64,000 bases of DNA from a virus: the IMG/VR virus record IMGVR_UViG_3300042946_000249; one strand, written 5' to 3'. A model generated the notes under the pieces. It ran no database searches and had not been told where the DNA came from. It saw only the letters and a program-made list of their open reading frames with translations. The translations under genes were made by a program, and so were the position numbers. Each line of letters starts with the position of its first letter. The stretch's first letter is position 1. This document shows positions 1-64,000 of the stretch, one piece after another.

Positions 1-91
1 CTAAACACCCTGTATGGTTCTTGAGGAATCAACGCCACCACAAGGAAATATTCTTTGAGCGTCTCTATGTCATAGATAATTACATTGTCCA

Positions 92-307
92 TTAGTCATC
101 TGTTTTCCAATAGTGATCACATTCTTTCTTCTCCTCATTGTATGGAGGATTAACAAAATACGATTGTCTGTATTCGTTAGGCTTGGCTGTATATCTATAA
201 CAGTCTTCCTTTAGAGGACAATCTTTGCCTTCGCACATTGTTATGTCTGGCATACTATTTCTTTTTAGCGGCTTTCTTCTTCTTAGGTTTCTGCTCACTA
301 GCTTCAA
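92..307 (-). CDS. hypothetical small Cys-rich protein; true start may be the internal Met at 253, which would abut the upstream gene
   Basis: ORF track; CxxxC...C...C pattern; overlaps 255..581 unless the internal Met is used. Confidence 0.3.
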   Translation of the reverse strand: MKLVSRNLRRRKPLKRNSMPDITMCEGKDCPLKEDCYRYTAKPNEYRQSYFVNPPYNEEKKECDHYWKTDD

Positions 308-581
308 GAACCACCTTAATAGCTATTCCCATCATTTGTCTAAATGTGTTATTCTCATCATCATTGTCCATAAGACAAGCAAGAGCTGCTATTAATGTTT
401 GAGGGTCACCTTTTGTTTTCACTGTACACTCTTCTTCAGCATTACATATAATGGTGAGGCGTGCTACTTCTTTTGGATCTTTTTTTTCTGGCATTTGATT
501 AATTTTAAAAGCCCACCCCTGATATGAGGTGGGCTCAAATTTACTTAAATTTACGCAAGCGAACAACTTTTTTGTAATCAT
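255..581 (-). CDS. hypothetical protein with Lys-rich C-terminal tail (EQKPKKKKAAKKK), possibly nucleic-acid binding
   Basis: ORF track; same strand as neighbours; basic tail. Confidence 0.4.
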   Translation of the reverse strand: MITKKLFACVNLSKFEPTSYQGWAFKINQMPEKKDPKEVARLTIICNAEEECTVKTKGDPQTLIAALACLMDNDDENNTFRQMMGIAIKVVLEASEQKPKKKKAAKKK

Positions 582-750
582 CCGAAGGACAATAATACAT
601 CTTGTTATTCTCTACAACAAGTCTATTAGTTCTCTTACGTGTGAATATGGCTTCTATGAGTTTGTTGACATTTGGATTGTCACAATCATCAGAGTAAACC
701 AATGGTCTTACTGGGCTCCATGAGGAGCGGTACACGAGGGTTGCTGCCAT
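541..750 (-). CDS. hypothetical 69-aa protein
   Basis: ORF track; co-oriented with the leftward gene block. Confidence 0.3.
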   Translation of the reverse strand: MAATLVYRSSWSPVRPLVYSDDCDNPNVNKLIEAIFTRKRTNRLVVENNKMYYCPSDDYKKVVRLRKFK

Positions 751-774
751 AAGTGTGTATGCTTTTATATGTGA

Positions 775-1137
775 TTAGAAATAGATGCGAATATGATCAT
801 CATACATTTCTACCTTCCTACCTACGATTGCAGGAGCAGTGTTGACAACTTGCTCTGTTTCAACAGCTGTAGGAACAGTTTCAACAGATATTGTGTCAAC
901 AATAGCAACATCAGCATTAACAGTAGCAACATTATTCTTTTCTACTGTTGGTTTAGCTTTTCTCTTAATCATGTATGTATGCGCTGCTACATAATACAAC
1001 TTGGTCAACATTTGCTTTTCAGTTACATTGTGCTTTGGAGCTAAGCGTTTTGCAAGTTCTTTGATCTTGATTCCATTACGCAGCTCTCTTTTGATTTCTG
1101 TAATTTCTGCTGTCTTAAAAATGCTTCTCCTTGACAT
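775..1137 (-). CDS. hypothetical protein with N-terminal HTH-like segment (IKIKELAKRLAPKHNVTEKQM)
   Basis: ORF track; motif reading only. Confidence 0.4.
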   Translation of the reverse strand: MSRRSIFKTAEITEIKRELRNGIKIKELAKRLAPKHNVTEKQMLTKLYYVAAHTYMIKRKAKPTVEKNNVATVNADVAIVDTISVETVPTAVETEQVVNTAPAIVGRKVEMYDDHIRIYF

Positions 1138-1168
1138 GTGCTTTGATTTTTATTTGTGATTTAATTGG

Positions 1169-1741
1169 TTACCAGATTTCAAATCCTCCACATTTACGGA
1201 GGAATGTTACGAAGTTTGTTACGTGATACAGAGGAGCGCTGTGTGCTGGAAATGCTAATGTACCATCATCAGCCACCACCCCATTATAAAGAATGGTGCC
1301 TATTGGATAGTCTTGGTTAAGCTTTTCTGTCCTATTAGGACCAATAAAGCTACCATTTGCTGTACCCCATGCACCCAAGCATAGATAGAATCTATCATCC
1401 TCATCATGCATATTGGCATTGTTGAGGATCATAAATGCCTCAATAGCATCAGCCAGCATGTCACAATCCTCCTGTGTCTTCAAGCCACTACCACTATTCT
1501 CACCCCAACCTCTTGTATCAAAAGGAAGCTCTGTAGCATGTATAGCCATGTCAGCTATTGCATGAATTGGTCTCCAGCCCCACCAATTACTCCTGAAATA
1601 CACACCAGGATTATTACTATGAAATAGGTCCATAGAGTTAAAATACTGGCTTTTTTCATAATCTGTGGCTGTCTCCCAGTTTGGTTCTTTTGGGCGATCC
1701 CCAACTATTTGAGGATTTATCCCAGCAATGTCTACTCCCAT
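1169..1741 (-). CDS. hypothetical 190-aa protein
   Basis: ORF track; no recognisable motif. Confidence 0.5.
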   Translation of the reverse strand: MGVDIAGINPQIVGDRPKEPNWETATDYEKSQYFNSMDLFHSNNPGVYFRSNWWGWRPIHAIADMAIHATELPFDTRGWGENSGSGLKTQEDCDMLADAIEAFMILNNANMHDEDDRFYLCLGAWGTANGSFIGPNRTEKLNQDYPIGTILYNGVVADDGTLAFPAHSAPLYHVTNFVTFLRKCGGFEIW

Positions 1742-1929
1742 AATTGATTTTTTAACTTTGAATAATCTTCCATCATTTGATTTGCTCTCATTATCCCACT
1801 TCTATCAATAGATAGTCTACCAACATGGAGGTCTCTCATCCATGTATGGAATTTGGGATCTAATTGTGTCTGTGCTCTTTCAGCCTCAATCTCTTGAAGC
1901 CTCTCTAATGTAATGTGCTCTAAGTTCAT
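1732..1929 (-). CDS. hypothetical 65-aa protein (track ORF 1732..2118 trimmed to the internal Met 'MNLEHITLERLQE')
   Basis: The 5' part of the track ORF overlaps 1946..2536 in another frame and is Met/Lys-rich junk; the internal start removes the overlap. Confidence 0.35.
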   Translation of the reverse strand: MNLEHITLERLQEIEAERAQTQLDPKFHTWMRDLHVGRLSIDRSGIMRANQMMEDYSKLKNQLWE

Positions 1930-1945
1930 ATGCTTTTTGTTAGTG

Positions 1946-2536
1946 TTAAGAATTGTCGTCCATATCTGAATCATCATCTTCTTCATCATAATATATTTCT
2001 CCTTCTCCTTTACATACAGGACAGGCTGTGTCTGGTGTAGCACCATATCCTGACCCATTACAATGGTGACATAACCAAGGACCTTCGTCATCATCCTCAT
2101 CCTCATATTCTTCATCATACATCCCTGGAATGGTCATGGTTATCTTGCCTGCGTATAGAATAGGGTTGATTTCCTCCTCATGGGCAAAGTCCCACTCATC
2201 TATCTCAACATCCACATATCCATCCCATTCTGTCAGGAGGAAGTTAACATCACTAAGTTCAACATCTCTGAGTTCATCAATATGGTCACCCTCATCCCAC
2301 CAGCCTATTTCATGCGGTTCAGCAAGCACCTGTTCATCATAAATCAAATAAGGCTCGACGGGTGCACCATGTATAACAATAAACTCTTCCAATGTCTCCC
2401 TAGGAAACTTGTCCAAGGCCCACACTTCTGTATATTCTTTTCGTGTGCCTGGATTAATCTTTGTAATGAACCACATGCCTATCTCTAATTGTTTGGGCAT
2501 GTAGCTTTTGAGTACAAGTTCGACGGTCTGATGCAT
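1946..2536 (-). CDS. highly acidic protein with C-terminal DnaJ-type zinc finger (CHHCNGSG ... CPVCKGEG)
   Basis: Two CxxCxGxG motifs; long Asp/Glu runs (DEEYEDEDDDEG, YYDEEDDDSDMDDNS). Confidence 0.55.
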   Translation of the reverse strand: MHQTVELVLKSYMPKQLEIGMWFITKINPGTRKEYTEVWALDKFPRETLEEFIVIHGAPVEPYLIYDEQVLAEPHEIGWWDEGDHIDELRDVELSDVNFLLTEWDGYVDVEIDEWDFAHEEEINPILYAGKITMTIPGMYDEEYEDEDDDEGPWLCHHCNGSGYGATPDTACPVCKGEGEIYYDEEDDDSDMDDNS

Positions 2537-2538
2537 AA

Positions 2539-2754
2539 CTATTTGTTTTGCAGGTGTTTCTTAATATCTACTTCCTTGAATGTACGCTTCTGTGGACTAG
2601 CTGCACCCATAGGATCTTGTGTATTATCTACACGAACGCATTCGTACAGACCATCTCCTAAGTGCTTCACTACCTTCCAAGCTTGATATAAAGAGCCACC
2701 AGATGTGCCAGCTTCATACCTTTCAATGTGTTTTCTAAAGATTGTTCCTACCAT
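2539..2754 (-). CDS. hypothetical 71-aa protein (track ORF 2539..2877 trimmed to the internal Met 'MVGTIFRK')
   Basis: The trimmed start avoids overlap with 2774..3043. Confidence 0.3.
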   Translation of the reverse strand: MVGTIFRKHIERYEAGTSGGSLYQAWKVVKHLGDGLYECVRVDNTQDPMGAASPQKRTFKEVDIKKHLQNK

Positions 2755-2773
2755 AATTGTGCATTTTAAAGGA

Positions 2774-3043
2774 TTATTGTTGTTCAGATTTTCTTTTTGG
2801 TGTGTGATAGTATTTCTTGAGCCATTCAAATGGCTTGAGTGCGTTGGTGAACGGACCACCAAACACAGGATATTCATCCTTCATATACTCTTCCTCAATA
2901 TCATCCCACGGATCATATTGGTCAAAGAATTCACCACACTCATTACACAACACATTTATAACTGGCATATGCTTTTGAGCGTAGTCATAATTGAAGTGGA
3001 AGTTCTCTTTCTCTCCACACTGAGGGCAAATTGTCTGTTTCAT
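2774..3043 (-). CDS. zinc-ribbon protein (CPQCG ... CNECG) with acidic C-terminal half
   Basis: Two CxxC pairs 30 aa apart. Confidence 0.5.
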   Translation of the reverse strand: MKQTICPQCGEKENFHFNYDYAQKHMPVINVLCNECGEFFDQYDPWDDIEEEYMKDEYPVFGGPFTNALKPFEWLKKYYHTPKRKSEQQ

Positions 3044-3059
3044 AACTTCTGTGTTTGGA

Positions 3060-54700: not shown

Positions 54701-56432
54701 GGATCAGGTGAGAGCACTTGTAGCTGTAGAAAGAAATAAAAAGGCAATCGCTACATCTGTATTTGGTAGAACTGAATATAAAGATGGCGTTCTTCAATAC
54801 ACCCCAGACAACAACGAGAACACAAAGCTTGTTGAAGACATGATGAAATCCATCATCTATGGTCAGAAGTTTGTACAGAGTGAAACCTTTGACCAGCTTC
54901 TAGGTAACCTTGGTAAATGGGGTGAAACATTGAACACTAAACTAGGTATGAAGGTGTTCCCAGAAAACCTAGACGGTAGACAACTGAGTGTTAATAAGAT
55001 AATCAATCAGCTTAACAACACCTTCCAGATCACTACATTAGGATTGAACGTACTGTCTGCAACCTCCAACTTCTTTGGTGGTAATGCTCAGTCTGTAATC
55101 AATTCTGGTAAGTATTTTACCAAGACAGACTATCTATCTTCTGAGGCAATGCTGTTTGTTAACAAGTTTGCTAACGTTGATGATCAAAAGAAACTGATTG
55201 GTGCTCTTGAATACTTCCTTCCTCTGACAGAAAACTACAACAGGGATGTGGCTAACAGCCTATCTCTCAATAAGTTAAACCAACAGAACCTACAGGACTT
55301 CTTGATGGTGCTCATGAGGAAGTCTGACTGGGCTGTACAGACAGCTAACTTCTACTCCTTCCTCAAGAACACAATTGTACAAGATGGAGAGGTGGTGAAT
55401 GCAAGAGAATTCTTGAGATCTCAACCTAAGTATGCAGAGAAATATGCTGGTACAGTGGAAGATAGGAAAGCTTTTGAACAAGAGTTTGAGGCTGAAGTGA
55501 AGAGTCTTGTAGAAGAGAAGGGTATACTAAAGGTTGCACAAATCGTTGATAATGAATTTGTTATACCTGGTGTAGAAAGAAAATCCGACAGTGTTGTTAG
55601 GCTCAGAAGGAACGTACAACAACTTACAAAGGATGCTCTTGGTAACCTGTCTGAGGATGATTTGAGAAAGATCAACCTCACTATATACGGTAAGTCATTC
55701 ATGATATTCAAGAACTGGATCCCTCGTCTGGTAGATGTACGTATGGGTAACCTTAAGTATAATAATGCTTCAGATGCCTATGAGTGGGGAAGGATGAGAA
55801 TGGTGTTCCGCATGTTGTCAGAAGACCTGATAGGAAGCCTTAATAATCTGTACGGCTCCCTTGTAGCTAATCAGAAGGGTGTTGATTTCATGAGAGAGCT
55901 ATTTGAAAAGAAAAGAGCTGATTATGAAAAGGATACAGGCAAAACTCTAGATATGACAGAGGCTGAGTTCATGGACCTGGTGAGAAATAACCTCAGAAGT
56001 CAAATGTACGATGTTATATTCCTAACAACTATGTTCATCCTCGTAGCTTCTCTCAAGGCAAACATGCCTGATGATGAAGAGGATGCAGCTACTAAGGCTA
56101 GATATAGATTTATGGTGAAGGCTGCTGATAAGTTTAAGGATGAATTGGCATACTTCTATGACCCCACTAGCTTCCAAAACCTCGTATCTAGTGGCATATT
56201 CCCATCCTTAGGACTTGTAGACAACTTTAAAAAGGGCACCGTGAACTTCTTTAAAGAAAACTGGGCTCTTGCTACAGGGGATGATGAAGCTGTTGAAGAA
56301 ATCAAGGTTATTAAATACTGGCTGAAGACATTCCCATTCACAAATCAGATGGCTGGATATCTCCCAATGTTCTATCCTGAACTAGCTAAAGACCTTGGTT
56401 TGAGAGTTCAATCTAACTACGGAATTAGATAG
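51744..56432 (+). CDS. giant virion protein (1562 aa), TAATG-coupled to the previous gene
   Basis: ORF track. Confidence 0.55.
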   Translation: MATCPNTNLDSWKELVASKGEDLAYYLWDKYDGNIPEDATVPTPDSPVASPKTIALIKDFIKRIGVDIKVLKQIEVNGVKYDDKGAALVMQKLIQVVEGKEAEALPEEAMHFAVSIIKQTNPALYKKLLGEINNYRILKDVFATYSKDPNYQIDGKPDVVKLKEEAIAKVLTQVVIDKNEGNTETLQKIANVESWWQQIIRAIKNLFAKSGFDQLAIDIMSGNEIGTAEDIREEQDAIFFSKNPQESIFDRIREVSGRIEKKEDGYYIDGKKINRRVTDIVKDWYSRRFNDKDLTKSEYAKAVDDLKREKGTAGHADIENMFKVFVDENGYLRETPLDDSTYVSQLNPSNRDMYNSLKENMEARLKSFPQGTRFMSEITVYDAKRGLAGTIDFLAVTPTGETSILDWKFMDLNVNKYTDIPWYKVNAWRQQMEQYKLILQNVYGVKPQDFRQTRMIPIQAVYSQGNAKINILPQLLSVKIGDVNVKNIADDYLLPVGLEGEKTGNKKIDALIEKLNAVYKKFSEKKVLPSEKLSKAEQLNELFTAIRQLQIKGNLKPLLRQAKILNKQIQKTIETYNSKFAGQDPSQFSQKEINSFAEELQTAQDAINTYVNLDTDLRGLFVGELSEEDRKLKDDLRDAADDARDIQSTLNDILNDYTSEIIAKSEGVDSLLSPEKIVKGITKLFASTATIQLKAMEVLYKKANKAFALAGYDTLTESKKLQSLKEAYDKWAASKGLSQKDYFNIIKKKKSNELIDEFNPEFYSTLKKNIEEKDSQWVRDNINVSEYNEFLKKKLEEEFERIENKHRVGTEVEINSEITREKNQAKLLYNTSTTESAGWLLYDFVKLFPKRETWESKEWKELNNPANKPALDFYNYIKERNEIYRELGYIGRAEARTFLPFVRKSLVEKLITGGNVRLGEQFFRDISIDEGDIGYGKIDPLTGKPIDALPKYFTKEVEGEVSDDLFRTMAMYNESAIRYQYLSEIEDQVRALVAVERNKKAIATSVFGRTEYKDGVLQYTPDNNENTKLVEDMMKSIIYGQKFVQSETFDQLLGNLGKWGETLNTKLGMKVFPENLDGRQLSVNKIINQLNNTFQITTLGLNVLSATSNFFGGNAQSVINSGKYFTKTDYLSSEAMLFVNKFANVDDQKKLIGALEYFLPLTENYNRDVANSLSLNKLNQQNLQDFLMVLMRKSDWAVQTANFYSFLKNTIVQDGEVVNAREFLRSQPKYAEKYAGTVEDRKAFEQEFEAEVKSLVEEKGILKVAQIVDNEFVIPGVERKSDSVVRLRRNVQQLTKDALGNLSEDDLRKINLTIYGKSFMIFKNWIPRLVDVRMGNLKYNNASDAYEWGRMRMVFRMLSEDLIGSLNNLYGSLVANQKGVDFMRELFEKKRADYEKDTGKTLDMTEAEFMDLVRNNLRSQMYDVIFLTTMFILVASLKANMPDDEEDAATKARYRFMVKAADKFKDELAYFYDPTSFQNLVSSGIFPSLGLVDNFKKGTVNFFKENWALATGDDEAVEEIKVIKYWLKTFPFTNQMAGYLPMFYPELAKDLGLRVQSNYGIR

Positions 56433-56495
56433 TACATAACGCTATATTATATCACTTATTTTCTCATAACTCATTGAAAATACATTACTAACAAC

Positions 56496-56503
56496 TAATT
56501 TTG
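56496..56503 (+). promoter_or_regulatory. candidate -7 box TAATTTTG 5 nt upstream of the ATG at 56509 (would give a near-leaderless mRNA)
   Basis: TAnnTTTG match. Confidence 0.25.
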
Positions 56504-56508
56504 CTAAT

Positions 56509-56904
56509 ATGCGTACCGCTGCAATTTGCCCAACATGTGCTGTTTTTGAGAATGCTTTGTGCATCCTCTATAACGGTGAATATTTGCCCAATATTGACGT
56601 AAACCCCCTAGACTCTCTAGAGGTGGCATTGGAAAAGATAAATGACAATCTAGTTCCTGTAACAGGATCTGGTGCTCCTACAGCTGGAGCCATCTATCTT
56701 GGACAACTTTACGTGAGAACTTCTGTATCTCCAAACCTGTATTTTGCTAAGTCAGTGGGTACAGGTGCCTTGGATTGGAGGATTCTTCTTTCTATTCCTT
56801 ACACAGGAGCCCCTGAGTATGCTGACAATGCAGCTGCTATTGCTGGTGGTTTAACAAATGGTCAAGTTTACCGTACAGGTGACGTGTTGAAAATCGTACA
56901 TTAA
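56509..56904 (+). CDS. small fibre-associated protein (131 aa) carrying the shared N-terminal anchor module
   Basis: CPTCAVFENALCILYNGEYLPNIDVNPLDSLEVALEKI aligns with the giant fibre N terminus. Confidence 0.5.
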   Translation: MRTAAICPTCAVFENALCILYNGEYLPNIDVNPLDSLEVALEKINDNLVPVTGSGAPTAGAIYLGQLYVRTSVSPNLYFAKSVGTGALDWRILLSIPYTGAPEYADNAAAIAGGLTNGQVYRTGDVLKIVH

Positions 56905-56912
56905 TCTAAGAC

Positions 56913-59900
56913 ATGAACGTACTTCCTAACATACTACAGTATGGAAGTAGTGGTACATCTGGTACATCAGGTGAATCACAGACTTCTGACTACGTAAATA
57001 ATTTCCCAGTTTATATAGATCCAGTGGTTCCTGTGGAGCCACCACCTAGTGAATTATCATCTAGTCAGCCCTCCTTTTTGTCCAAGCTCTATGGTAGGAC
57101 TCTTGTTCAGGAGACCCCTATTATTACTAGCGAGCCACTTATTTACGTTGCTGCTCCTGATCCAGTGGATCCAGCAGACAACCAATCGTTCATGTCTAAG
57201 CTATTTGCTAATGCAAATAACAATACAGCTTTCACAAGCAGCCCAGTAGTATGTGCTGCTAATCCTTGTCCTATCACATTGAACGCCACCTGTGTGTTCT
57301 ATGAAGGACCCAATTTGATCTATACAAAGATCAACACAAATGACAACCTCCAGACAGCTCTTGAGAAGATAGAGGCAGCTATTGCTGACGAACTTGCAGG
57401 AAGCTCTGGTACGAGTGGCACTTCTGGCACCTCAGGAACGTCTGGTACAGCAGGTACTTCAGGTACCACTGGCACCAGCGGAACTTCAGGCACAAGTGCT
57501 ACAGCAGGTACTAGTGGCACCTCAGGTAGCTCTGGCACATCTGGTACAACAGGAACAAGCGGTACGAGTGGTACTGACGGTAGTGGAGGAACCTCTGGAA
57601 CCTCTGGGACGTCTGGAACATCTGGTACTAGTGGCACTGCTGGAACCAGTGGCACCTCTGGTACTACGGGTACAAGTGGCACATCAGGTACAGATGGTAG
57701 TGGTGGCACATCAGGCACTTCGGGTACATCTGGAACCAGTGGTACAGCTGGCACCTCAGGTACAAGCGGAACCACAGGAACTAGTGGCACTAGTGGGACA
57801 ACTGGTACCTCAGGTACATCAGGCACCCATGGTACATCAGGTACAACTGGTACTAGCGGTACGTCTGGGACAACTGGAACTTCTGGAACCTCAGGCACTA
57901 CAGGTACGTCTGGTACCTCAGGCACTTCTGCAACGAGTGGTACGAGCGGAACCAGTGGTACAGATGGAACAGGAGGTACGAGCGGTACATCTGGTACATC
58001 AGCCACTAGTGGAACTAGTGGTACAACAGGAACTAGTGGGTCAAGTGGCACCAGTGGAACCTCTGGAACATCAGGAACTGATGGCTCAGGAGGTACTTCT
58101 GGCACATCGGGTACATCTGGTACAGATGGAACTAGTGCAACATCAGGAACTTCTGGTTCTTCTGGAACATCAGGAACCTCTGCAACTAGTGGAACTACAG
58201 GTACTTCTGGTACGTCAGGTACTGACGGAACAGGAGGAACTAGTGGTACGTCAGGTACATCTGCCACCTCTGGATCATCAGGCTCTTCTGGAACTGATGG
58301 AACAGGAGGCACATCAGGTACCAGTGGAACCAGTGCGACCAGTGGTACGTCTGGAACTACAGGAACCTCAGGTAGTAGTGGTACAACTGGTACGTCTGGT
58401 ACGAGTGGGACCGCTGGTACAAGTGGAACAGATGGTTCTGCAGGTACATCAGGTACAAGTGCAACGAGTGGAACAAGTGGTACAAGTGCTACATCAGGCA
58501 CGTCTGGAACAAGCGGAACTACTGGTACATCTGGTAGCTCTGGTTTGAGTGGAGATAGATTTGCTACAACATCAAGTACAACATATACATTAGGAGGTGT
58601 TGGTTCCTCAGGAACTATCACAGTGGGGACAGGACTAGCCTACACAGTGGGTCAGTCTATCATTGTTGCCTACGATGCTAATAATCACGTAGAAGCTGAG
58701 GTGACTTCATACAATCCAGCAACTGGCGTATTGAGCTTCACTGTATTTAGACTTACAGGGTCTGGTACATATAGTTCATGGCAAGTAAACTTGGATGGTG
58801 CTACAGGTGGTGATGGTTCTAGTGGATCATCAGGAACTAGTGGTACATCTGCAACAGCTGGTACCTCTGGTACGACAGGTACATCAGGTTCAAGTGGTAC
58901 GTCTGCTACGTCAGGTAGCTCAGGTACTACAGGAACTAGTGGAACTGACGGTACAAGTGGAACCAGCGGCACCACAGGCACATCTGGCTCAAGCGGTAGT
59001 AGTGGATCTTCAGGAAGCAGTGGTTCTAGTGGAACATCTGCCACTTCTGGAACTTCTGGTACATCAGCTACAGATGGTACAGGGGGCACTAGTGGAACTA
59101 GTGGGTCCTCAGGATCAAGCGGTAGTGCTGGAACAAGTGGTACAGCAGGTAGTCCTGGTACGTCTGGAACTAGTGGTAGTTCTGGAACAGCAGGATCGTC
59201 AGGAACCACAGGTACATCTGGAACTTCTGGAACAACAGGTACCAGTGGTACTAGTGGTGTATCTGGAACCTCTGGAACTAGTGGTACAAACGGTACAGGT
59301 GGAACATCTGGCACCTCTGGAAGCAGTGGAACATCTGGGTCTAGCGGTACAGCAGGTTCATCTGGTACTAGTGGAACATCAGGTACAGCAGGTACTAATG
59401 GTAGTCCAGGAACCTCTGGCACAAGTGGATCAAGTGGATCTAGTGGTACAAGCGGTACGACAGGTACCAGTGGAACCTCAGGTTCTTCTGGATCTAGTGG
59501 TATAAACGTTGGATCAAGTGCTGTAATTGTACTTGGTGCAGGTGCTTGTTCTTCTGTTAGATGTGGCGTTAGCAATAGTGCAACAGGTGGTTACACAGGT
59601 AACTTGGCAGGTACAAGTAACACCATGAGTGGATGCTGTTACAACGTTATAGTTGGTGGATTTAACAGTACTGCAAGCGGAACATATTATGCGTTTATAG
59701 GTAATGGTAGTACAAACACGGCAAGTGGCAGTGTTTCATTTATAGGTACAGGTGGGAGCAACATCGCTTCAGCAGATTATGCTTTTATTGGTAATGGTGC
59801 AGGAAATACAGCTTCAGGTAGTTTTGCAACTATTGTAGGAGGTACAGTTAATACGGCATCAGGAACATGTTCTTTTATTGGTGGAGGTTTTTGTAATACT

Positions 59901-62900
59901 GCTTCAGGAACACATGATGTTGTTGTGGGTGGATTATACAATAGGGCAACATCTTCTGCCCAATCATTTATAGGAGGTGGTTGCTACAACTATATTTCAA
60001 CAGGTGTTTGGAATACCATCACGGGTGGTATTTGTAACTGTATTACAGCAGGAGGATATGGATTTATTGGTGGTGGATATAGAAACTGCCTGATAAATAG
60101 CGCAACAGAATCTGCTGTAGTTGTTGGAGGTACTAATACTGTATCTGCCTCTTATTCAGGTATTCTTTCAGGAGCTTTAAATAGTGTATCAGGCGCACGT
60201 TCTTCTGTTTCAGGAGGTTGCCAAGTTACAGCGAGTGGCGCATTCAGCCATGTTGGAGGTGGTTGTTTAAATACAGCATCAGGAACAACAGCAGGTGTGT
60301 TGAGTGGTAGAGGTAATGCCGCAGGAGGTAATTGGTCTTCTGTAAGTGGTGGTTATAATAACTCAGCAGGCGGTAATGAATCTCATGTAGGTGGAGGTAA
60401 TGCAAACTCTGCTTCAGGATGTATGTCATTGGTTGGTGCAGGTTTTGGTAACACTGCATCAGGTTTAAGGTCAGGTATTGGTTCAGGTCAATGTAACACA
60501 GCATCAGGTAACTATTCTTTTGTTGGAGGTGGTGTTAGCAATTTAGCTTGTGGTGTTTACTCTACAGTGACAGGCGGTATAGTAAACGAAGCAAGAAGTA
60601 CAGGAGCTGTAGCGGGTGGTTATGCCAACACTGCAAGTAATAGATATTCAGCAGCTCATGGTGGATTGTCTAACGTTGCTCAGGGTATTTCATCTGTTAT
60701 CGCAGGTGGTCAATCTAACTATGTTTGTAACTCAACATCAGGATGCCTTGCTTATGGAGCAGTTGTCACAGGTGGTGTTGGTAATAATACCACGGGTGGG
60801 ACTTGGAGTTTAGCTTCCTGTGCGTTTACGGTAGCACCAACTCCTTGTAATGTAGGACAATACTCTTTCATAGGCGGCGGATTTCAGAATAGAGCAGGAG
60901 GAAATTATAATTCAGTAGTAGGAGGATTTTGTAATAGTACAGGTACAAGTGGATACACCGCAATTGCAGGTGGTTTTTGTAACACAGCTTCTGCAAACTA
61001 TAACTTTATAGGAGCAGGTCAAAATAACTGTATTATTTCTACAGGAGGAATGTCTATACTTGTTGGTGGCTATCTAAATACAGTTAGTAGCACATATAGC
61101 TTTTTAGGAGGAGGTAGAAGTAACTTAGTCTCAGGAGCTTGTTCTGTAATAGTTGGAGGTAAAAGTAATACAGCATCAGGATATATTTCAGCAATAGGTG
61201 GTGGTCAGTCAAATATAACATCAGGAAGTTTTACTTTTGTCGGTGGTGGTAATGGGGTGTGTGCCACATCTTGTTTGGCAACAGCTGTTGGAGGAGCAAA
61301 TAATAGAGCATCGGGAGCAAGAGCGTTTGTAGGTGGTGGTTCAGCCAACACTTCTTCAGGATATATTTCAGTAGTAGTTGGTGGTGATTCGAATACATCA
61401 AATGATAGATATGGTGTTATAAGTGGGGGGGCTGTCAATACTGCATCGAACACTTATGCAACGGTGTCGGGAGGTCTAAGTAATACAGCTTCAGCGAGTA
61501 GAGGAACAGTAGCAGGTGGTACAGGAAACACAGCAAGTGGATATGCAGCTTTTGTTGTAGGTCAAAACAACACAGCAAGCGGGAATAGAGCTACAATTAG
61601 TGGAGGTAGAAATAATACATCATCAAGCACATATTCGACAGTCTCAGGCGGTTATAGAAACAGGGCTACACAATATGCTACAACTGTGAGTGGTGGATAT
61701 GGTAACTATTCATGTGTTACACAAGGAACTGTTGGGGGCGGTATATGTAATAATCTTTGCAGTAGCGTAAGTGCTTCTTGCGGAGCAGGAGCAACGATTG
61801 CAGGTGGTGTTGGTAACAACACAACAGGTGGTACATTTAATCCTGCAACAGGTCAGTTTTCTGTTGCACCAACCGCAATATGCAACGCAGGTCAATTCTC
61901 TTTCATAGGAGGAGGATTTTCAAATGTAGCTACAGGAGCATATTCTGTTTTAAGTGGTGGGCAATGCAACACTGCAAGTGGATATAGGAGTTTTGTAGGT
62001 TCAGGTTATCAAACTGTAGCATTAGGTTGTCATAGTGTAGCTGTTGGAGGTTTGTTTAACTGTGCAAGTAACTGTGCAGTAGTGGTAGGTGGTTGTGTTA
62101 ATACAGCTTCAGGTGCTTATTCTTTTATTGGAGGTGGTAGAACACACACAGCAAGTGGTACTTGGTCTACCATTTCAGGTGGATATGGTAACCTTGCAAG
62201 TGGACAAATATCAGTAGTTGCAGGAGGTTATGGAAGTAGTGCAACAGGTTGTCGTGCTGCAACCTTGGGGGGTCAATCAAATGGTGCATCAGGCGCATGG
62301 GCTACAGCAGGTGGTGGAATTAGTAATGTTGCATCAGGAGAATCATCAGTGGTAAGTGGTGGTGATAGTAACACAGCAAGTGGTATTCGTGCAGCAATAG
62401 GTGGCGGTTTAGCAAATACAGCAACACAATGTGTATCTACTGTAGCAGGTGGAGACTATAATGATGCTACAGCAAACAGAGCATTCATAGGTGGTGGATA
62501 TAATAATACAGCTTCTTCAAGCTATACCACTGTATCAGGTGGTTATCAAAATACGGCATCTGCTACAAGGGCTACTGTTGCAGGTGGTCAGTTCAATTTT
62601 GCCACAGGTAGCCAATCGATAGTTGGCGGGGGTATATGTAACTGTGCAACCACTTCAAATTCACATATTGGTGGCGGTCTTAGAAACTGTGTTGTAGGAA
62701 GCATGGAAGCATCCACAATAAGTGGAGGTTATGGTAATATAGTTTGTGGTTCAGGTTGTGAAGCAACTATTGGAGGTGGTCGTGGAAACCGTACTGTTGG
62801 TTGGTGGACATTTGTAGGAGGTGGTGTTGGAAACGTGGCTTCTGCTGAAAGTTCTATTAGTGGCGGTGCATTAAACACAGCATCAGGATATAGGTCTTCT

Positions 62901-64000
62901 GTATCAGGTGGTTGGTGTAACGTTACATCAGGTTGTCAAGCGGGTGTTTTGAGTGGATGTGGTAATACAGCATCAGGATATAGAGCAGTTGCTGTTGGTG
63001 GCGGTTCAAATATATCTTCAAATAGTTGGTCAACAGTAGGTGGAGGTAGAAATAACACAGCTTCAGGTTGCATGTCCTTTATAGGTGGTGGCTGTGGAAA
63101 CACTGTTTCGGGTGGTTATGCTTCTTCTCTTTTAGGTGGATGTGGTAACACAGCATCGGGAACAAGGTCTACCGTAGGTGGTGGAATGTTGAATACAGTA
63201 ACAGGAGCATCAGGAACAATAGCAGGTGGAGAATATAACTGTATTTGTAGTGCAGGCATATTTGGAATCATATCAGGTGGATATTGTAGCATAGTTTCAG
63301 GATGTTCTGCATCAATATTAGGTGGTAGAGCTAATTTAGCATCAGGAGATTGTTCAACAGTGGGTGGCGGTCAAGCAAACTGTGCAACAGGTGCTTTTTC
63401 AGCAATAGTGGGAGGAGACCAACATGCTGCCACAGCTTCAAGAGCATTTATAGGTGGTGGTTATGACAATACCGTAAGTAACGGTTATGGAGCTATAACA
63501 GGAGGTTATCAAAACAATGCTTCTTACATGGCTTTTGTAGGTGGAGGTAGAGGAAGCACAGCATCAGGAAACTATTCAACAGTAGCAGGGGGACAGTCTA
63601 ACACTGCTTCAGGAACTGTATCAACAGTTGGTGGAGGTGCAGGGCATACAGCTTCAGGATATCGTTCTGTTATCAGTGGTGGACACGCAAATTATGCTAC
63701 AGCATCTTGTTCCGCAGTAGGAGGTGGATATAACAACATTTCTTCAGGAGGATTTGCTTTTGTTGGTGCAGGTACAGGTAACACCTCTTCAAGTTCAGCA
63801 ACATTTATTGGAGGTGGTTATTATAATGTTGCAAACTGTGGATATGCTTCAGTGGCAGGAGGACAACAGAACACAGCAAGTGGAAGATATTCATTTGCAG
63901 GTGGTGGTCTTTGCAACCTTTCCAATGGTGATATGTCAACTATTGGTGGAGGTTCATGGAATAAAATAATTAGTTCAATAGCTACTTGTTGTGCAACAGG
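56913..64000 (+). CDS. giant fibre protein, 5'-partial view (at least 2362 aa, runs off the window): anchor module, two collagen-like Gly-X-Y blocks, long beta-roll/YadA-head-like repeat domain
   Basis: ATG at 56913, frame 0 checked by hand at many points up to 64000 with no stop; absent from the ORF track because there is no in-window stop. Confidence 0.75.
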   Translation, partial: MNVLPNILQYGSSGTSGTSGESQTSDYVNNFPVYIDPVVPVEPPPSELSSSQPSFLSKLYGRTLVQETPIITSEPLIYVAAPDPVDPADNQSFMSKLFANANNNTAFTSSPVVCAANPCPITLNATCVFYEGPNLIYTKINTNDNLQTALEKIEAAIADELAGSSGTSGTSGTSGTSGTAGTSGTTGTSGTSGTSATAGTSGTSGSSGTSGTTGTSGTSGTDGSGGTSGTSGTSGTSGTSGTAGTSGTSGTTGTSGTSGTDGSGGTSGTSGTSGTSGTAGTSGTSGTTGTSGTSGTTGTSGTSGTHGTSGTTGTSGTSGTTGTSGTSGTTGTSGTSGTSATSGTSGTSGTDGTGGTSGTSGTSATSGTSGTTGTSGSSGTSGTSGTSGTDGSGGTSGTSGTSGTDGTSATSGTSGSSGTSGTSATSGTTGTSGTSGTDGTGGTSGTSGTSATSGSSGSSGTDGTGGTSGTSGTSATSGTSGTTGTSGSSGTTGTSGTSGTAGTSGTDGSAGTSGTSATSGTSGTSATSGTSGTSGTTGTSGSSGLSGDRFATTSSTTYTLGGVGSSGTITVGTGLAYTVGQSIIVAYDANNHVEAEVTSYNPATGVLSFTVFRLTGSGTYSSWQVNLDGATGGDGSSGSSGTSGTSATAGTSGTTGTSGSSGTSATSGSSGTTGTSGTDGTSGTSGTTGTSGSSGSSGSSGSSGSSGTSATSGTSGTSATDGTGGTSGTSGSSGSSGSAGTSGTAGSPGTSGTSGSSGTAGSSGTTGTSGTSGTTGTSGTSGVSGTSGTSGTNGTGGTSGTSGSSGTSGSSGTAGSSGTSGTSGTAGTNGSPGTSGTSGSSGSSGTSGTTGTSGTSGSSGSSGINVGSSAVIVLGAGACSSVRCGVSNSATGGYTGNLAGTSNTMSGCCYNVIVGGFNSTASGTYYAFIGNGSTNTASGSVSFIGTGGSNIASADYAFIGNGAGNTASGSFATIVGGTVNTASGTCSFIGGGFCNTASGTHDVVVGGLYNRATSSAQSFIGGGCYNYISTGVWNTITGGICNCITAGGYGFIGGGYRNCLINSATESAVVVGGTNTVSASYSGILSGALNSVSGARSSVSGGCQVTASGAFSHVGGGCLNTASGTTAGVLSGRGNAAGGNWSSVSGGYNNSAGGNESHVGGGNANSASGCMSLVGAGFGNTASGLRSGIGSGQCNTASGNYSFVGGGVSNLACGVYSTVTGGIVNEARSTGAVAGGYANTASNRYSAAHGGLSNVAQGISSVIAGGQSNYVCNSTSGCLAYGAVVTGGVGNNTTGGTWSLASCAFTVAPTPCNVGQYSFIGGGFQNRAGGNYNSVVGGFCNSTGTSGYTAIAGGFCNTASANYNFIGAGQNNCIISTGGMSILVGGYLNTVSSTYSFLGGGRSNLVSGACSVIVGGKSNTASGYISAIGGGQSNITSGSFTFVGGGNGVCATSCLATAVGGANNRASGARAFVGGGSANTSSGYISVVVGGDSNTSNDRYGVISGGAVNTASNTYATVSGGLSNTASASRGTVAGGTGNTASGYAAFVVGQNNTASGNRATISGGRNNTSSSTYSTVSGGYRNRATQYATTVSGGYGNYSCVTQGTVGGGICNNLCSSVSASCGAGATIAGGVGNNTTGGTFNPATGQFSVAPTAICNAGQFSFIGGGFSNVATGAYSVLSGGQCNTASGYRSFVGSGYQTVALGCHSVAVGGLFNCASNCAVVVGGCVNTASGAYSFIGGGRTHTASGTWSTISGGYGNLASGQISVVAGGYGSSATGCRAATLGGQSNGASGAWATAGGGISNVASGESSVVSGGDSNTASGIRAAIGGGLANTATQCVSTVAGGDYNDATANRAFIGGGYNNTASSSYTTVSGGYQNTASATRATVAGGQFNFATGSQSIVGGGICNCATTSNSHIGGGLRNCVVGSMEASTISGGYGNIVCGSGCEATIGGGRGNRTVGWWTFVGGGVGNVASAESSISGGALNTASGYRSSVSGGWCNVTSGCQAGVLSGCGNTASGYRAVAVGGGSNISSNSWSTVGGGRNNTASGCMSFIGGGCGNTVSGGYASSLLGGCGNTASGTRSTVGGGMLNTVTGASGTIAGGEYNCICSAGIFGIISGGYCSIVSGCSASILGGRANLASGDCSTVGGGQANCATGAFSAIVGGDQHAATASRAFIGGGYDNTVSNGYGAITGGYQNNASYMAFVGGGRGSTASGNYSTVAGGQSNTASGTVSTVGGGAGHTASGYRSVISGGHANYATASCSAVGGGYNNISSGGFAFVGAGTGNTSSSSATFIGGGYYNVANCGYASVAGGQQNTASGRYSFAGGGLCNLSNGDMSTIGGGSWNKIISSIATCCAT
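57399..58559 (+). repeat. collagen-like block 1: 129 Gly-X-Y triplets (mostly G-T-S)
   Basis: 9-nt codon periodicity GGN-ACN-(TCN/AGY); synonymous codons vary widely. Confidence 0.85.
58797..59507 (+). repeat. collagen-like block 2: 79 Gly-X-Y triplets
   Basis: Same periodicity; separated from block 1 by a 79-aa globular insert (58560-58796). Confidence 0.85.
59508..64000 (+). repeat. more than 1490 aa of 14-16-residue repeats, approximately x-A-S-G-x-x-S-x-V/I-x-G-G-x-x-N-T, many containing Cys
   Basis: Hand translation, e.g. NTASGAYSFIGGGRTHTASGTWSTISGGYGNLASGQISVVAGG... Confidence 0.8.

Follow-up and report, generated by a model that had tools for sequence, protein, structure and literature searches.

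A very long collagen-like and beta-roll fibre gene of a crAss-like phage and its linkage to a candidate heptosyltransferase gene

The fibre gene and its coding frame

We analyzed a 64,000-nt stretch of viral DNA (IMG/VR record IMGVR_UViG_3300042946_000249, in the following called the window), at the 3' end of which one open frame on the (+) strand, beginning at 56913 and still open at 64000, encodes the larger part of a giant fibre protein with collagen-like Gly-Thr-Ser (G-T-S) blocks and a long beta-roll. The features of the locus are collected in Table 1. Translation of the frame gives 2362 codons with zero stops. The closest in-frame stop on its 5' side is a TAA at 56907, two codons before the ATG, so that the ATG at 56913 is the earliest start possible, and homologues share the MNVLP start of the protein. 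An earlier reading made from the letters of the window (the sequence-only reading) had proposed an open frame of at least 2362 aa from this ATG; this is confirmed, and the full length of the protein is 3390 aa.

The extension of the contig to the stop codon, which the same reading had suggested as a check, was carried out with public contigs of this phage located via the neighbouring 131-aa protein and a metagenome scan. The JGI contig L001 is 100% identical across the 7088 nt of the fibre gene and open throughout. In the ENA contigs L002 and L003 the frame is intact, with 4 of 7088 and 11 of 5459 nt different, and the Logan contigs L004-L006 are identical to the window across the 1.1-1.3 kb they cover; altogether the frame is retained in four independent assemblies. 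A further contig from the metagenome scan, L007, is identical to L001 over an overlap of 2129 nt and carries the stop codon, at window-equivalent position 67085, 3085 nt past the window end. No exact 68-nt match to 63909-63976 was found in IMG/VR. The sequence-only reading saw only 70% of the protein and missed the C-terminal Peptidase_S74 domain.

For a codon test we compared the collagen blocks to those of three IMG/VR relatives (L128, L130 and L135), used in place of the L002 and L003 variants, which hold too few differences to inform on selection. In block 1 most nucleotide differences fall on the third codon position of the fibre frame (59 of 74 compared to L128, 229 of 358 compared to L135), and the protein of this block is 88-97% identical among the relatives with up to 66% of the codons different. 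Among changed codons the synonymous share in the fibre frame is 81-88% in most comparisons and 74% in the smaller one of block 2 with L135, compared to 0-7% in four other frames and 47-71% in the antisense frame with the same wobble position, to which the listed 433-aa open reading frame (ORF) belongs. This pattern of synonymous change identifies the fibre frame as the coding frame, and the frame starting at 56913 is a genuine fibre gene. The codon diversification within the triplets that had been noted from the sequence is confirmed: 38 distinct encodings are used among the 77 GTS triplets in block 1, and TRF arrays over the repeats are only 60-80% matched. Likewise, the proposal that selection on the protein and not recent slippage keeps the repeat is borne out by the excess of synonymous changes in the fibre frame.

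The fibre is absent from the ORF list of the window, as had been pointed out, and the cause is mechanical, because ORFs running off the window end are not listed. The ORFs that are listed over the fibre are artefacts, again in agreement with the earlier reading: Val/Pro/Leu-rich in antisense and low-complexity Val/Leu/Gln-rich strings in the alternative (+) frames. In the JGI annotation two antisense ORFs of 433 and 296 aa are called and the fibre is shortened to 2486 aa. Antisense Val/Pro/Leu-rich calls over G-T-S collagen genes look like a systematic annotation error of this fibre class. Within 56001-64000, across the fibre gene, the GC content goes up from about 0.40 to values of 0.43-0.47, with a GC skew of up to +0.3; both rise because of the GGN, ACN and TCN codons, with no sign of foreign origin.

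Table 1. Features of the fibre locus inside the window and on the extending contig L007
Feature	Position	Strand	Remarks
Giant upstream ORF, 3870 aa	40132-51744	+	no Pfam match
Giant upstream ORF, 1562 aa	51744-56432	+	no Pfam match
131-aa gene directly upstream of fibre	56509-56904	+	paralogous 3-Cys module at start
Fibre gene, first 2362 of 3390 codons	56913-64000	+	open frame, contig extension, purifying selection
N-terminal extension, aa 1-111	56913-57245	+	Pro-rich; start and motifs conserved in P0122, P0124
3-Cys module, aa 112-159	57246-57389	+	C..PCP..L...CVFYEG.NL.Y..INTNDNLQTALEKI; helix ends against collagen
Artefactual antisense ORF, 433 aa	57320-58621	-	Val/Pro/Leu-rich; called as gene by JGI
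Artefactual ORFs, alternative frames	57382-58548; 58795-59505	+	low-complexity
Collagen block 1, aa 163-549	57399-58559	+	129 triplets; position 1: 120 Gly, 9 Ala; X = Thr 115; Y = Ser 94; 0 Pro
Insert, aa 550-628	58560-58796	+	79 aa, non-collagen, between blocks
Artefactual ORF, 296 aa in JGI call	58685-59575	-	same kind of artefact
Collagen block 2, aa 629-865	58797-59507	+	79 triplets; position 1: 75 Gly, 4 Ala; 2 Pro
Left-handed beta-roll like trimeric adhesin heads, aa 866-3294	59508-64000 in window	+	15-residue turns GGxxNTASGxxSxVx
About 45-aa element, copy 1	60771-60905	+	GGVGNNTTGGT...APT... (GGVGNNTTGGTF...APT...); interrupts roll
Modelled roll segment, aa 1385-1624	61065-61784	+	AF2 pLDDT 96.5, pTM 0.88
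About 45-aa element, copies 2 and 3	61803-61940; aa 2368, beyond window	+	repeat anatomy
Peptidase_S74 (PF13884), aa 3295-3390	L007:1702-2307, beyond window		24.0 bits vs cut-off 22, E 4.8e-5
p258, 258 aa	L007:2298-3074		overlaps fibre stop (2310); conserved after related fibres L009-L011, L014-L016, L208
NoeE-like sulfotransferase and APS-kinase-like gene	L007:4405-5675 (window-equivalent ~69180-70450)
Cupin, HAD phosphatase, HldE-II-like, HldE-I-like, HldD-like	L007:5665-8284 (window-equivalent ~70440-73060)
Methyltransferase–GT4–Aah/TibC-type O-heptosyltransferase fusion, 1114 aa	L007:8758-12102	-	convergent with fibre

Domain architecture of the fibre protein

The protein begins with an N-terminal region of 162 aa carrying three Cys, in accordance with the predicted region of about 150 aa with a Cys module. 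Its first 111 residues contain a conserved MNVLPNIL.YGSSGTSGTSG start and two SF(L/M)SKL(Y/F) motifs at aa 54-60 and 92-98, show no match in Pfam or PHROG, and probably dock the fibre to the virion. The following 3-Cys module was found in 249 cluster representatives at 50% identity, where it nearly always lies at residues 3-50, and also in 171 IMG/VR contigs; its three Cys are invariant among relatives, and it is the signature of the fibre family. In AlphaFold2 (AF2) models, all of them monomers, the module reaches a pLDDT of 70 overall and about 90 in the core, and its helix (aa 146-162) leads directly into the collagen. A tblastn search with the N-terminus against GenBank phages gave no match. 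The 131-aa protein encoded directly upstream has a weak match to a PHROG tail protein and is 43% identical to the module over 35 aa (E 4e-7), so one docking site may hold both a short and a giant protein. Its C-terminal motif ...PEYADNAAAIAGGLTNGQVYRTGD... is also present in P0133; this protein, which combines the Cys module with G-T-S repeats, was deposited as Daphnia sinensis and is probably a phage or bacterial contamination of a freshwater-animal assembly.

The two collagen-like blocks comprise 208 triplets in unbroken register, with Gly (195) or Ala (13) at position 1, Thr at X in 167 (80%) and Ser at Y in 150 (72%). Among the 624 residues there are 2 Pro and 14 charged residues. Two uninterrupted, proline-free blocks had been described; the counts of 129 and 79 and the register hold, while the 13 Ala-for-Gly triplets and the 2 Pro of block 2 had been overlooked. 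The Pfam Collagen family (PF01391) matches with 200.2 bits compared to a gathering cut-off of 27.2 (E 3.2e-60). The imino acids and charge pairs that usually stabilize bacterial and viral collagens are nearly lacking in both blocks, and the share of Thr at X is far from the 3.1% found in a survey of viral collagens (PMC3368898). Longer arrays exist in relatives: L092 (11699-20971, (-) strand) has 912 G-T-S-type triplets and L120 (11034-19238, (-) strand) has 707, and if triple-helical these would give rods with lengths of about 780 and 600 nm.

Between the blocks lies the 79-aa insert that had been recognized before. The domain is found in many related collagen ORFs; with tblastn against GenBank phages it matches only the huge phage LR756501/3, and a search for homologous proteins returned 2 matches only. 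It is likely a knob or a hinge.

The next 2429 aa, of which 1497 aa lie in the window, form a repeat domain of about 160 turns with an autocorrelation peak of 0.33 at lag 15, 88 Cys at variable positions and, in every turn, an N-T-A-S-G motif whose Ser is nearly invariant. This bears out the claim of a domain of more than 1490 aa built of 14-16-residue, Cys-containing repeats, and the likeness to YadA-type adhesin heads and left-handed beta-rolls that had been suspected is supported by sequence and by fold. In sequence, the UspA1 head of Moraxella (3pr7) matches with E 3.5e-19 over 284 residues. The sequence-only reading had suggested a trimer prediction as a check; a single-chain model of the segment aa 1385-1624 gave a beta-roll with high confidence (Table 1), whose best Foldseek match in the PDB is again the UspA1 head (TM 0.73, E 5e-10, rmsd 2.8 Å over 229 columns), followed in this order by CbpF, BpaC, AtaA, the ryegrass ice-binding protein LpIBP and YadA. 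The roll also matches Pfam LbR_Ice_bind (PF21300, 3e-12); an ice-binding protein was rejected, as this match reflects the common roll fold only. Similarly, a true trimeric autotransporter (type Vc) was rejected: Pfam gave no match to a YadA-type beta-barrel anchor, stalk or neck in the fibre protein, the C-terminus is Peptidase_S74, and only the head fold is shared. A tblastn search with the roll against 50,697 GenBank phages found no match but is uninformative, since the low-complexity filter masks the repeats. Three elements of about 45 aa split the roll into four segments and may be hinges or neck-like connectors.

The C-terminal Peptidase_S74 region opens with S-S-D-E-R-L-K and contains S3299-D-E-R-L-K3304, in agreement with S-D-x-R-x-K, which we take from the endosialidase literature to be the Ser-Lys dyad motif of S74. 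The fibre C-terminus matches PHROG tail-fibre C-termini (3.7e-10). A query composed of the last ~600 aa of the roll and the first ~36 aa of S74 matched more than 5,700 proteins; PF13884 is annotated in over half of the best 120, all of which are at most 1222 aa long and do not include the known 2486-aa self-protein, so that giant relatives are not visible among them. Judged by its S74 domain, the protein appears to be a self-assembling trimeric phage fibre.

Phage context and the linked gene cluster

The window contains the structural module of a crAss-like phage: the large terminase subunit (TerL), portal and major capsid protein match PHROGs, and two ORFs match CrAss_Ring_2 (5.7e-19) and CrAss_Ring_1 (2.2e-12). 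TerL is 28-40% identical to those of Cellulophaga, Azobacteroides, crAss-type and Leptolyngbya phages; the best match is Leptolyngbya phage Lbo-JY46 (40%), the Cellulophaga phages phi17:2 and phi4:1 reach 33%, and Flavobacterium phages were also matched. No tRNA genes were found in the window. A Bacteroidota-type phage, as the sequence-only reading had put it, is plausible from the crAss-like ring and TerL matches, although the best TerL match is a cyanophage. The sole match of the two giant ORFs upstream of the fibre is a weak one to a PHROG exonuclease in the second; they may belong to the ejected or cargo proteins that crAss-like phages typically have.

Compared to the nearest relative, L128, the identity of the fibre protein is 0.96 in the N-terminus, 0.97 and 0.99 in the collagen blocks, 0.76 in the insert, 0.49-0.62 in the roll and 0.85 in S74. 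The roll is thus the fastest-evolving region of the protein, and many of its indels are multiples of about 15 residues; a fast-evolving distal roll would be the usual signature of receptor binding. At the DNA level (blastn against L128 9229-12706) only 56441-59888 aligns, with 90.8% identity, which covers the 131-aa gene and the proximal half of the fibre gene, and the rest of the contig cannot be aligned. The proximal half therefore appears as a conserved mobile block, a mosaic anchor-plus-collagen cassette to which different distal rolls are joined. G-T-S collagen genes with the same N-terminal module were found at no fewer than 59 of the 79 IMG/VR loci examined. The view of the fibre as unusual has to be divided: its G-T-S composition with Thr at X is atypical for viral collagens, whereas collagen, YadA-like roll and S74 are already combined in the databases. 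Viral protein databases hold proteins of uncultured phages and giant viruses with collagen repeats, YadA-like rolls, S74 and the same fold, and from these and the many roll-plus-S74 matches we conclude that the combination of domains itself is not new.

The genes following the fibre lie outside the window, on contigs joined by identical overlaps. On L007 the fibre stop is followed by p258, p124, p293, a sulfotransferase, an APS-kinase-like gene, a cupin, a HAD phosphatase, an HldE-domain-II-like adenylyltransferase, an HldE-domain-I-like heptose kinase and an ADP-heptose-6-epimerase-like (HldD-like) gene, and then by a 1114-aa enzyme on the opposite strand. The ADP-heptose pathway genes lie 3.4–6.0 kb and the enzyme 6.4 kb past the stop. 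Neither p258 nor p124 has a match in Pfam or PHROG; p258 may help in assembly or form the distal tip. The only match of p293 is PHROG 8954 (function unknown), with none in Pfam, NCBIfam or the PDB. In about 20 of 80 viral loci p293, the sulfotransferase and the APS kinase are found with the heptosyltransferase, and no ATP sulfurylase was seen; the sulfotransferase/APS-kinase pair hints at sulfated glycans. The set from cupin to HldD could constitute a complete phage ADP-L,D-heptose pathway in which the cupin replaces GmhA.

The 1114-aa enzyme is a fusion whose C-terminal domain matches TIGR04414 (hepto_Aah_TibC) with 272.7 bits compared to an equivalog cut-off of 200, and TibC (4rap) with E 4.8e-49. 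In a pairwise alignment 8 of 9 residues are kept, namely the catalytic base Asp110, the sugar-binding Thr226, Lys230 and Trp305 and the four iron-finger Cys (TibC numbering); the ninth, the sugar-binding Arg286, is not. At the stereoselectivity position the phage enzyme has Ser, as in AAH; this AAH-type form accepts ADP-L,D-heptose (PMC4358343), which fits the neighbouring epimerase gene. Both TibC and AAH modify Ser, not Thr, in the contexts NS*GG and NTS*A of a beta-solenoid (PMC4358343). The suggestion of the sequence-only reading to look for Thr O-glycosylation led in a useful direction, as a protein O-heptosyltransferase gene is linked to the fibre family, although the characterized enzymes of its family act on Ser.

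Relatives of the heptosyltransferase domain are encoded in 213 IMG/VR contigs, of which 80 loci were fetched for synteny, 65 of them with at least 3 kb past the 3' end of the enzyme gene. In 79 of the 80 the domain is fused to the same GT4 and middle domains, and 59 also have the methyltransferase. A collagen-like ORF was observed on the 3' side of the enzyme gene in 39 of 65 loci, always convergent, compared to 4 of 73 on the other side, and the linked collagens are almost all of the G-T-S type with ~0% Pro. Starting from the fibre side, with 64 complete ORFs carrying the 3-Cys module, the enzyme is within reach of 16 of the 50 that have collagen and of none of the 14 that lack it (Fisher p = 0.014, with loci that are not independent). 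A beta-roll occurs in only 8 of the 80 enzyme loci, so it is the G-T-S collagen that constantly partners the enzyme.

The pair persists across different settings. Fibre, p293, sulfotransferase, APS kinase and enzyme recur in other gene order in L022 and L029, and the enzyme–collagen pair is also present in the 735-kb huge phage LR756501 and in a Bacteroides-binned contig. It recurs in the cultured Microcystis phage Mel-JY01 (L210, PP395634.1), whose terminase is unrelated to that of the phage studied here. There, nt 2-3049 on the (+) strand form one open frame with 204 G-T-S or G-S-S triplets, whose end lies 1.7 kb upstream of the enzyme gene. In place of this frame, the GenBank record has antisense EVP-rich 'hypothetical proteins' at 1-651 (-) and 739-2298 (-), and it labels the enzyme 'methyltransferase FkbM'. 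Altogether 4 of 50,697 GenBank phage records carry the enzyme, three without any annotation and the fourth labelled methyltransferase. The enzyme subfamily was found in 213 viral contigs compared to 3 contigs from metagenome-assembled genomes (MAGs), all Bacteroidota, among 185,579 species genomes.

A predicted trimeric fibre and its possible glycosylation

Since the collagen helix, the roll of trimeric autotransporter adhesin (TAA) heads and S74 are each obligate trimers, a homotrimer is the natural reading, and very probably an uncultured crAss-like phage here encodes a homotrimeric fibre of its virion, 3,390 residues long and with the architecture described above, most likely a tail fibre. 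In the predicted assembly S74 would trimerize the C-terminus, drive the folding of the roll and then cut itself off at S3299-D3300. The collagen blocks would zip into triple helices, with the N-terminal module and its helix holding the register at the other end, so that the fibre would be assembled from both ends, dock on the virion with its N-terminus and present the roll as the distal, host-binding part. With standard rises (0.286 nm for each residue of collagen, ~0.48 nm for each turn of the solenoid) we estimate a rod of ~111 + 68 + 78 nm, roughly 250 nm. The proposal of a host-glycan or mucin adhesin found no support, and the relatives come from environmental metagenomes.

Whether the fibre is also glycosylated has to be judged from gene linkage. 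We propose that, during infection, the methyltransferase–GT4–Aah/TibC-type enzyme of the phage (BAHT-type) would O-heptosylate Ser of the fibre inside the cell, with ADP-heptose made by phage-encoded enzymes as the donor; the chances for and against this step appear to us about evenly balanced. Candidate acceptors are the roughly 150 Ser at position Y of the G-T-S triplets, the Ser in the NTASG motif of each turn, or both. Co-occurrence favours the collagen and enzymological precedent the roll. The glycan could be extended, methylated and sulfated, and it would stabilize a proline-free, nearly uncharged triple helix and shield the fibre. Fibre architecture and heptosylation taken together form an explanation that we favour slightly. 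The wider proposal is more tentative and in our estimate falls somewhat short of an even chance: that widespread uncultured phages and at least one cultured cyanophage build proline-free G-T-S glyco-collagen fibres, with Ser heptosylated by a phage BAHT and glycosylation replacing hydroxyproline, and with the ADP-heptose pathway encoded by some of these phages alongside sulfation genes.

Several points weigh against this picture. The G-T-S triplets are of low intrinsic triple-helix propensity, and in 13 of them Ala stands in the place of Gly. The known BAHT substrates are monomeric autotransporter beta-helices, not collagen, and TibC Arg286 aligns to a Thr of the phage enzyme, beside an indel. 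The heptose-pathway genes score below the NCBIfam equivalog cut-offs, which makes theirs a family-level assignment only, and are present in 4 of 80 BAHT loci. Because many of these loci come from phages related to one another, the synteny counts cannot be treated as independent observations. The fibre could be attached to the head instead of the tail, and the triple helix, the trimer, the autocleavage and every glycosylation step are what we infer.

The fibre could be built as described and carry no glycan, with the heptose and sulfation cluster acting on host surface proteins, on lipopolysaccharide (seroconversion or superinfection exclusion) or on another virion protein; the genes would be adjacent only because accessory genes gather at the end of the structural module. 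Phage glycosyltransferases that act on host O-antigen or phage DNA are indeed well known (summarized in PMC12619734), the scarcity of heptose genes at BAHT loci fits such a role, 26 of the 65 loci with enough flank have no collagen ORF, and LR756504 has a BAHT gene with no collagen within 15 kb. Nevertheless, we regard this as rather unlikely, as the adjacency is specific in orientation (39 of 65 compared to 4 of 73), outlasts changes of gene order and recurs in phages with unrelated terminases, and as the BAHT subfamily is nearly restricted to viral contigs and BAHT enzymes glycosylate protein, not lipopolysaccharide, acting on Ser-rich repetitive solenoids.

A second alternative concerns the blocks themselves, which might be flexible, heavily O-glycosylated mucin-like spacers in a protein trimerized by the beta-roll and S74 alone. 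In host-guest data, G-T-S-type triplets without Pro or charge are weak triple-helix formers. Such a spacer would be consistent with the composition of the blocks (block 1 has no Pro, and 14 of the 624 residues are charged) and with the Ala substitutions, and a linked O-glycosyltransferase would suit a mucin-like region equally. A spacer, however, needs no Gly at every third residue, and the strict three-residue period persists through all 208 triplets, and through as many as 912 in relatives, in the face of heavy synonymous divergence; Ala, the least disruptive replacement, is the sole residue tolerated at the Gly position. Together with the very high Pfam Collagen score and the trimer-forming modules that flank the blocks, as in characterized phage collagen fibres (PMC3368898), this makes mucin-like spacers improbable.

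Still less probable is a role as a head fibre or other decoration of the virion, or as an adhesin outside it. None of the known tail-attachment domains matches the N-terminal region, the gene comes after giant, presumably ejected proteins and not after tail ring genes, and the PHROG 'tail fiber' matches are mainly due to the collagen repeats; yet it is non-collagen sequence by which the S74 C-terminus matches tail-fibre and baseplate families of PHROG, and a fast distal roll joined to a conserved proximal half is the classic pattern of receptor-binding fibres. Finally, a frameshift or assembly artefact, by collapse of repeats or by a chance open frame in low-complexity DNA with the alternative-frame ORFs as the true products, was rejected and is hardly conceivable: JGI and GenBank annotators did call antisense ORFs, but these products are Val/Pro/Leu low-complexity strings, the independent assemblies agree, the fibre frame joins a conserved N-terminus to a conserved S74 C-terminus, and codon positions and synonymous changes single it out.

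Collagen-like phage tail fibres are established (PMC3368898), and the trimeric fibre proposed here has relatives among several known systems. The EPclA/EPclB proteins of enterohaemorrhagic E. coli (EHEC) prophages (PMC3368898) are likewise trimeric phage fibres with a Gly-X-Y helix flanked by trimerization domains, in which hydroxyproline is impossible; their collagen is rich in Pro and charge (GPK, GPQ, GER) and ~110 residues long, compared to 624 residues essentially without either here. Thr glycosylation is mentioned in the same study as a stabilizer of collagen and was not observed in recombinant EPclA (rEPclA), whereas a glycosyltransferase is genetically linked to the present fibre. The TAA heads (UspA1, YadA, BpaC, AtaA and CbpF) share the 14-16-residue GG..N.A.G repeat and the left-handed parallel beta-roll; the solved UspA1 head chain has ~290-310 residues and ~20 turns compared to ~160 turns here, and TAAs are membrane-anchored, while the fibre is a phage protein assembled in the cytoplasm, ends in S74 and stands outside the TAA family. 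With the S74 fibres (K1F endosialidase, T5 pb1, GA-1 neck appendage) it has the C-terminal S74 with S-D-x-R-x-K in common, and with many uncultured 'tail fiber domain-containing' proteins the combination of roll and S74. In the characterized cases the chaperone folds a triple beta-helix or beta-prism, whereas here S74 follows a TAA-type roll on a 3,300-residue rod.

On the enzyme side, AIDA-I/Aah and TibA/TibC of E. coli (PMC4358343) are similar in that a BAHT gene lies near a very long Ser-rich beta-solenoid adhesin. In the present case the enzyme is phage-encoded and fused to a methyltransferase and GT4, and its partner is not a type Va autotransporter: in place of the adjacent AIDA-type substrate that marks BAHT enzymes we found a phage collagen/beta-roll fibre. 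Surface filaments O-glycosylated by dedicated enzymes encoded alongside are known from BclA of B. anthracis and from Mimivirus fibrils, and BclA is a precedent for a glycan-stabilized collagen. For virions, glycosylation of the capsid and tail tube of mycobacteriophages is reported (Freeman 2023, as cited in PMC12619734). From all of these the present system would differ in enzyme family (BAHT), sugar (heptose) and acceptor (G-T-S or NTASG). Literature searches on phage heptosyltransferase/TibC/BAHT with collagen, YadA-like phage fibres, crAss-like collagen fibres and Mel-JY01 returned nothing relevant, and no report was found on the size of the fibre, the G-T-S collagen family, its mis-annotation or the BAHT linkage. 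What is new here is accordingly the size of the fibre, a family of G-T-S collagens with its own N-terminal module, the systematic mis-annotation of this family and its linkage to a phage BAHT.

Standard gene callers misread these genes, which leaves a large class of phage host-recognition proteins largely invisible in databases. A collagen helix of at least 100 nm without proline or hydroxyproline and nearly without charge poses a puzzle of stability, to which the heptosyltransferase offers a testable answer, and with the same gene pair in the cultured Microcystis phage Mel-JY01 the idea of heptosylation can be tested directly. If it is true, heptosylation of proteins would extend for the first time beyond bacterial autotransporters, and for the first time to a virion. 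Should the link be real, BAHT enzymes would reach from E. coli virulence factors to the assembly of phage virions, and a second, chemically different glycosylation of virions would be added to that of the mycobacteriophages, with a bearing on stability, adsorption and immune recognition.

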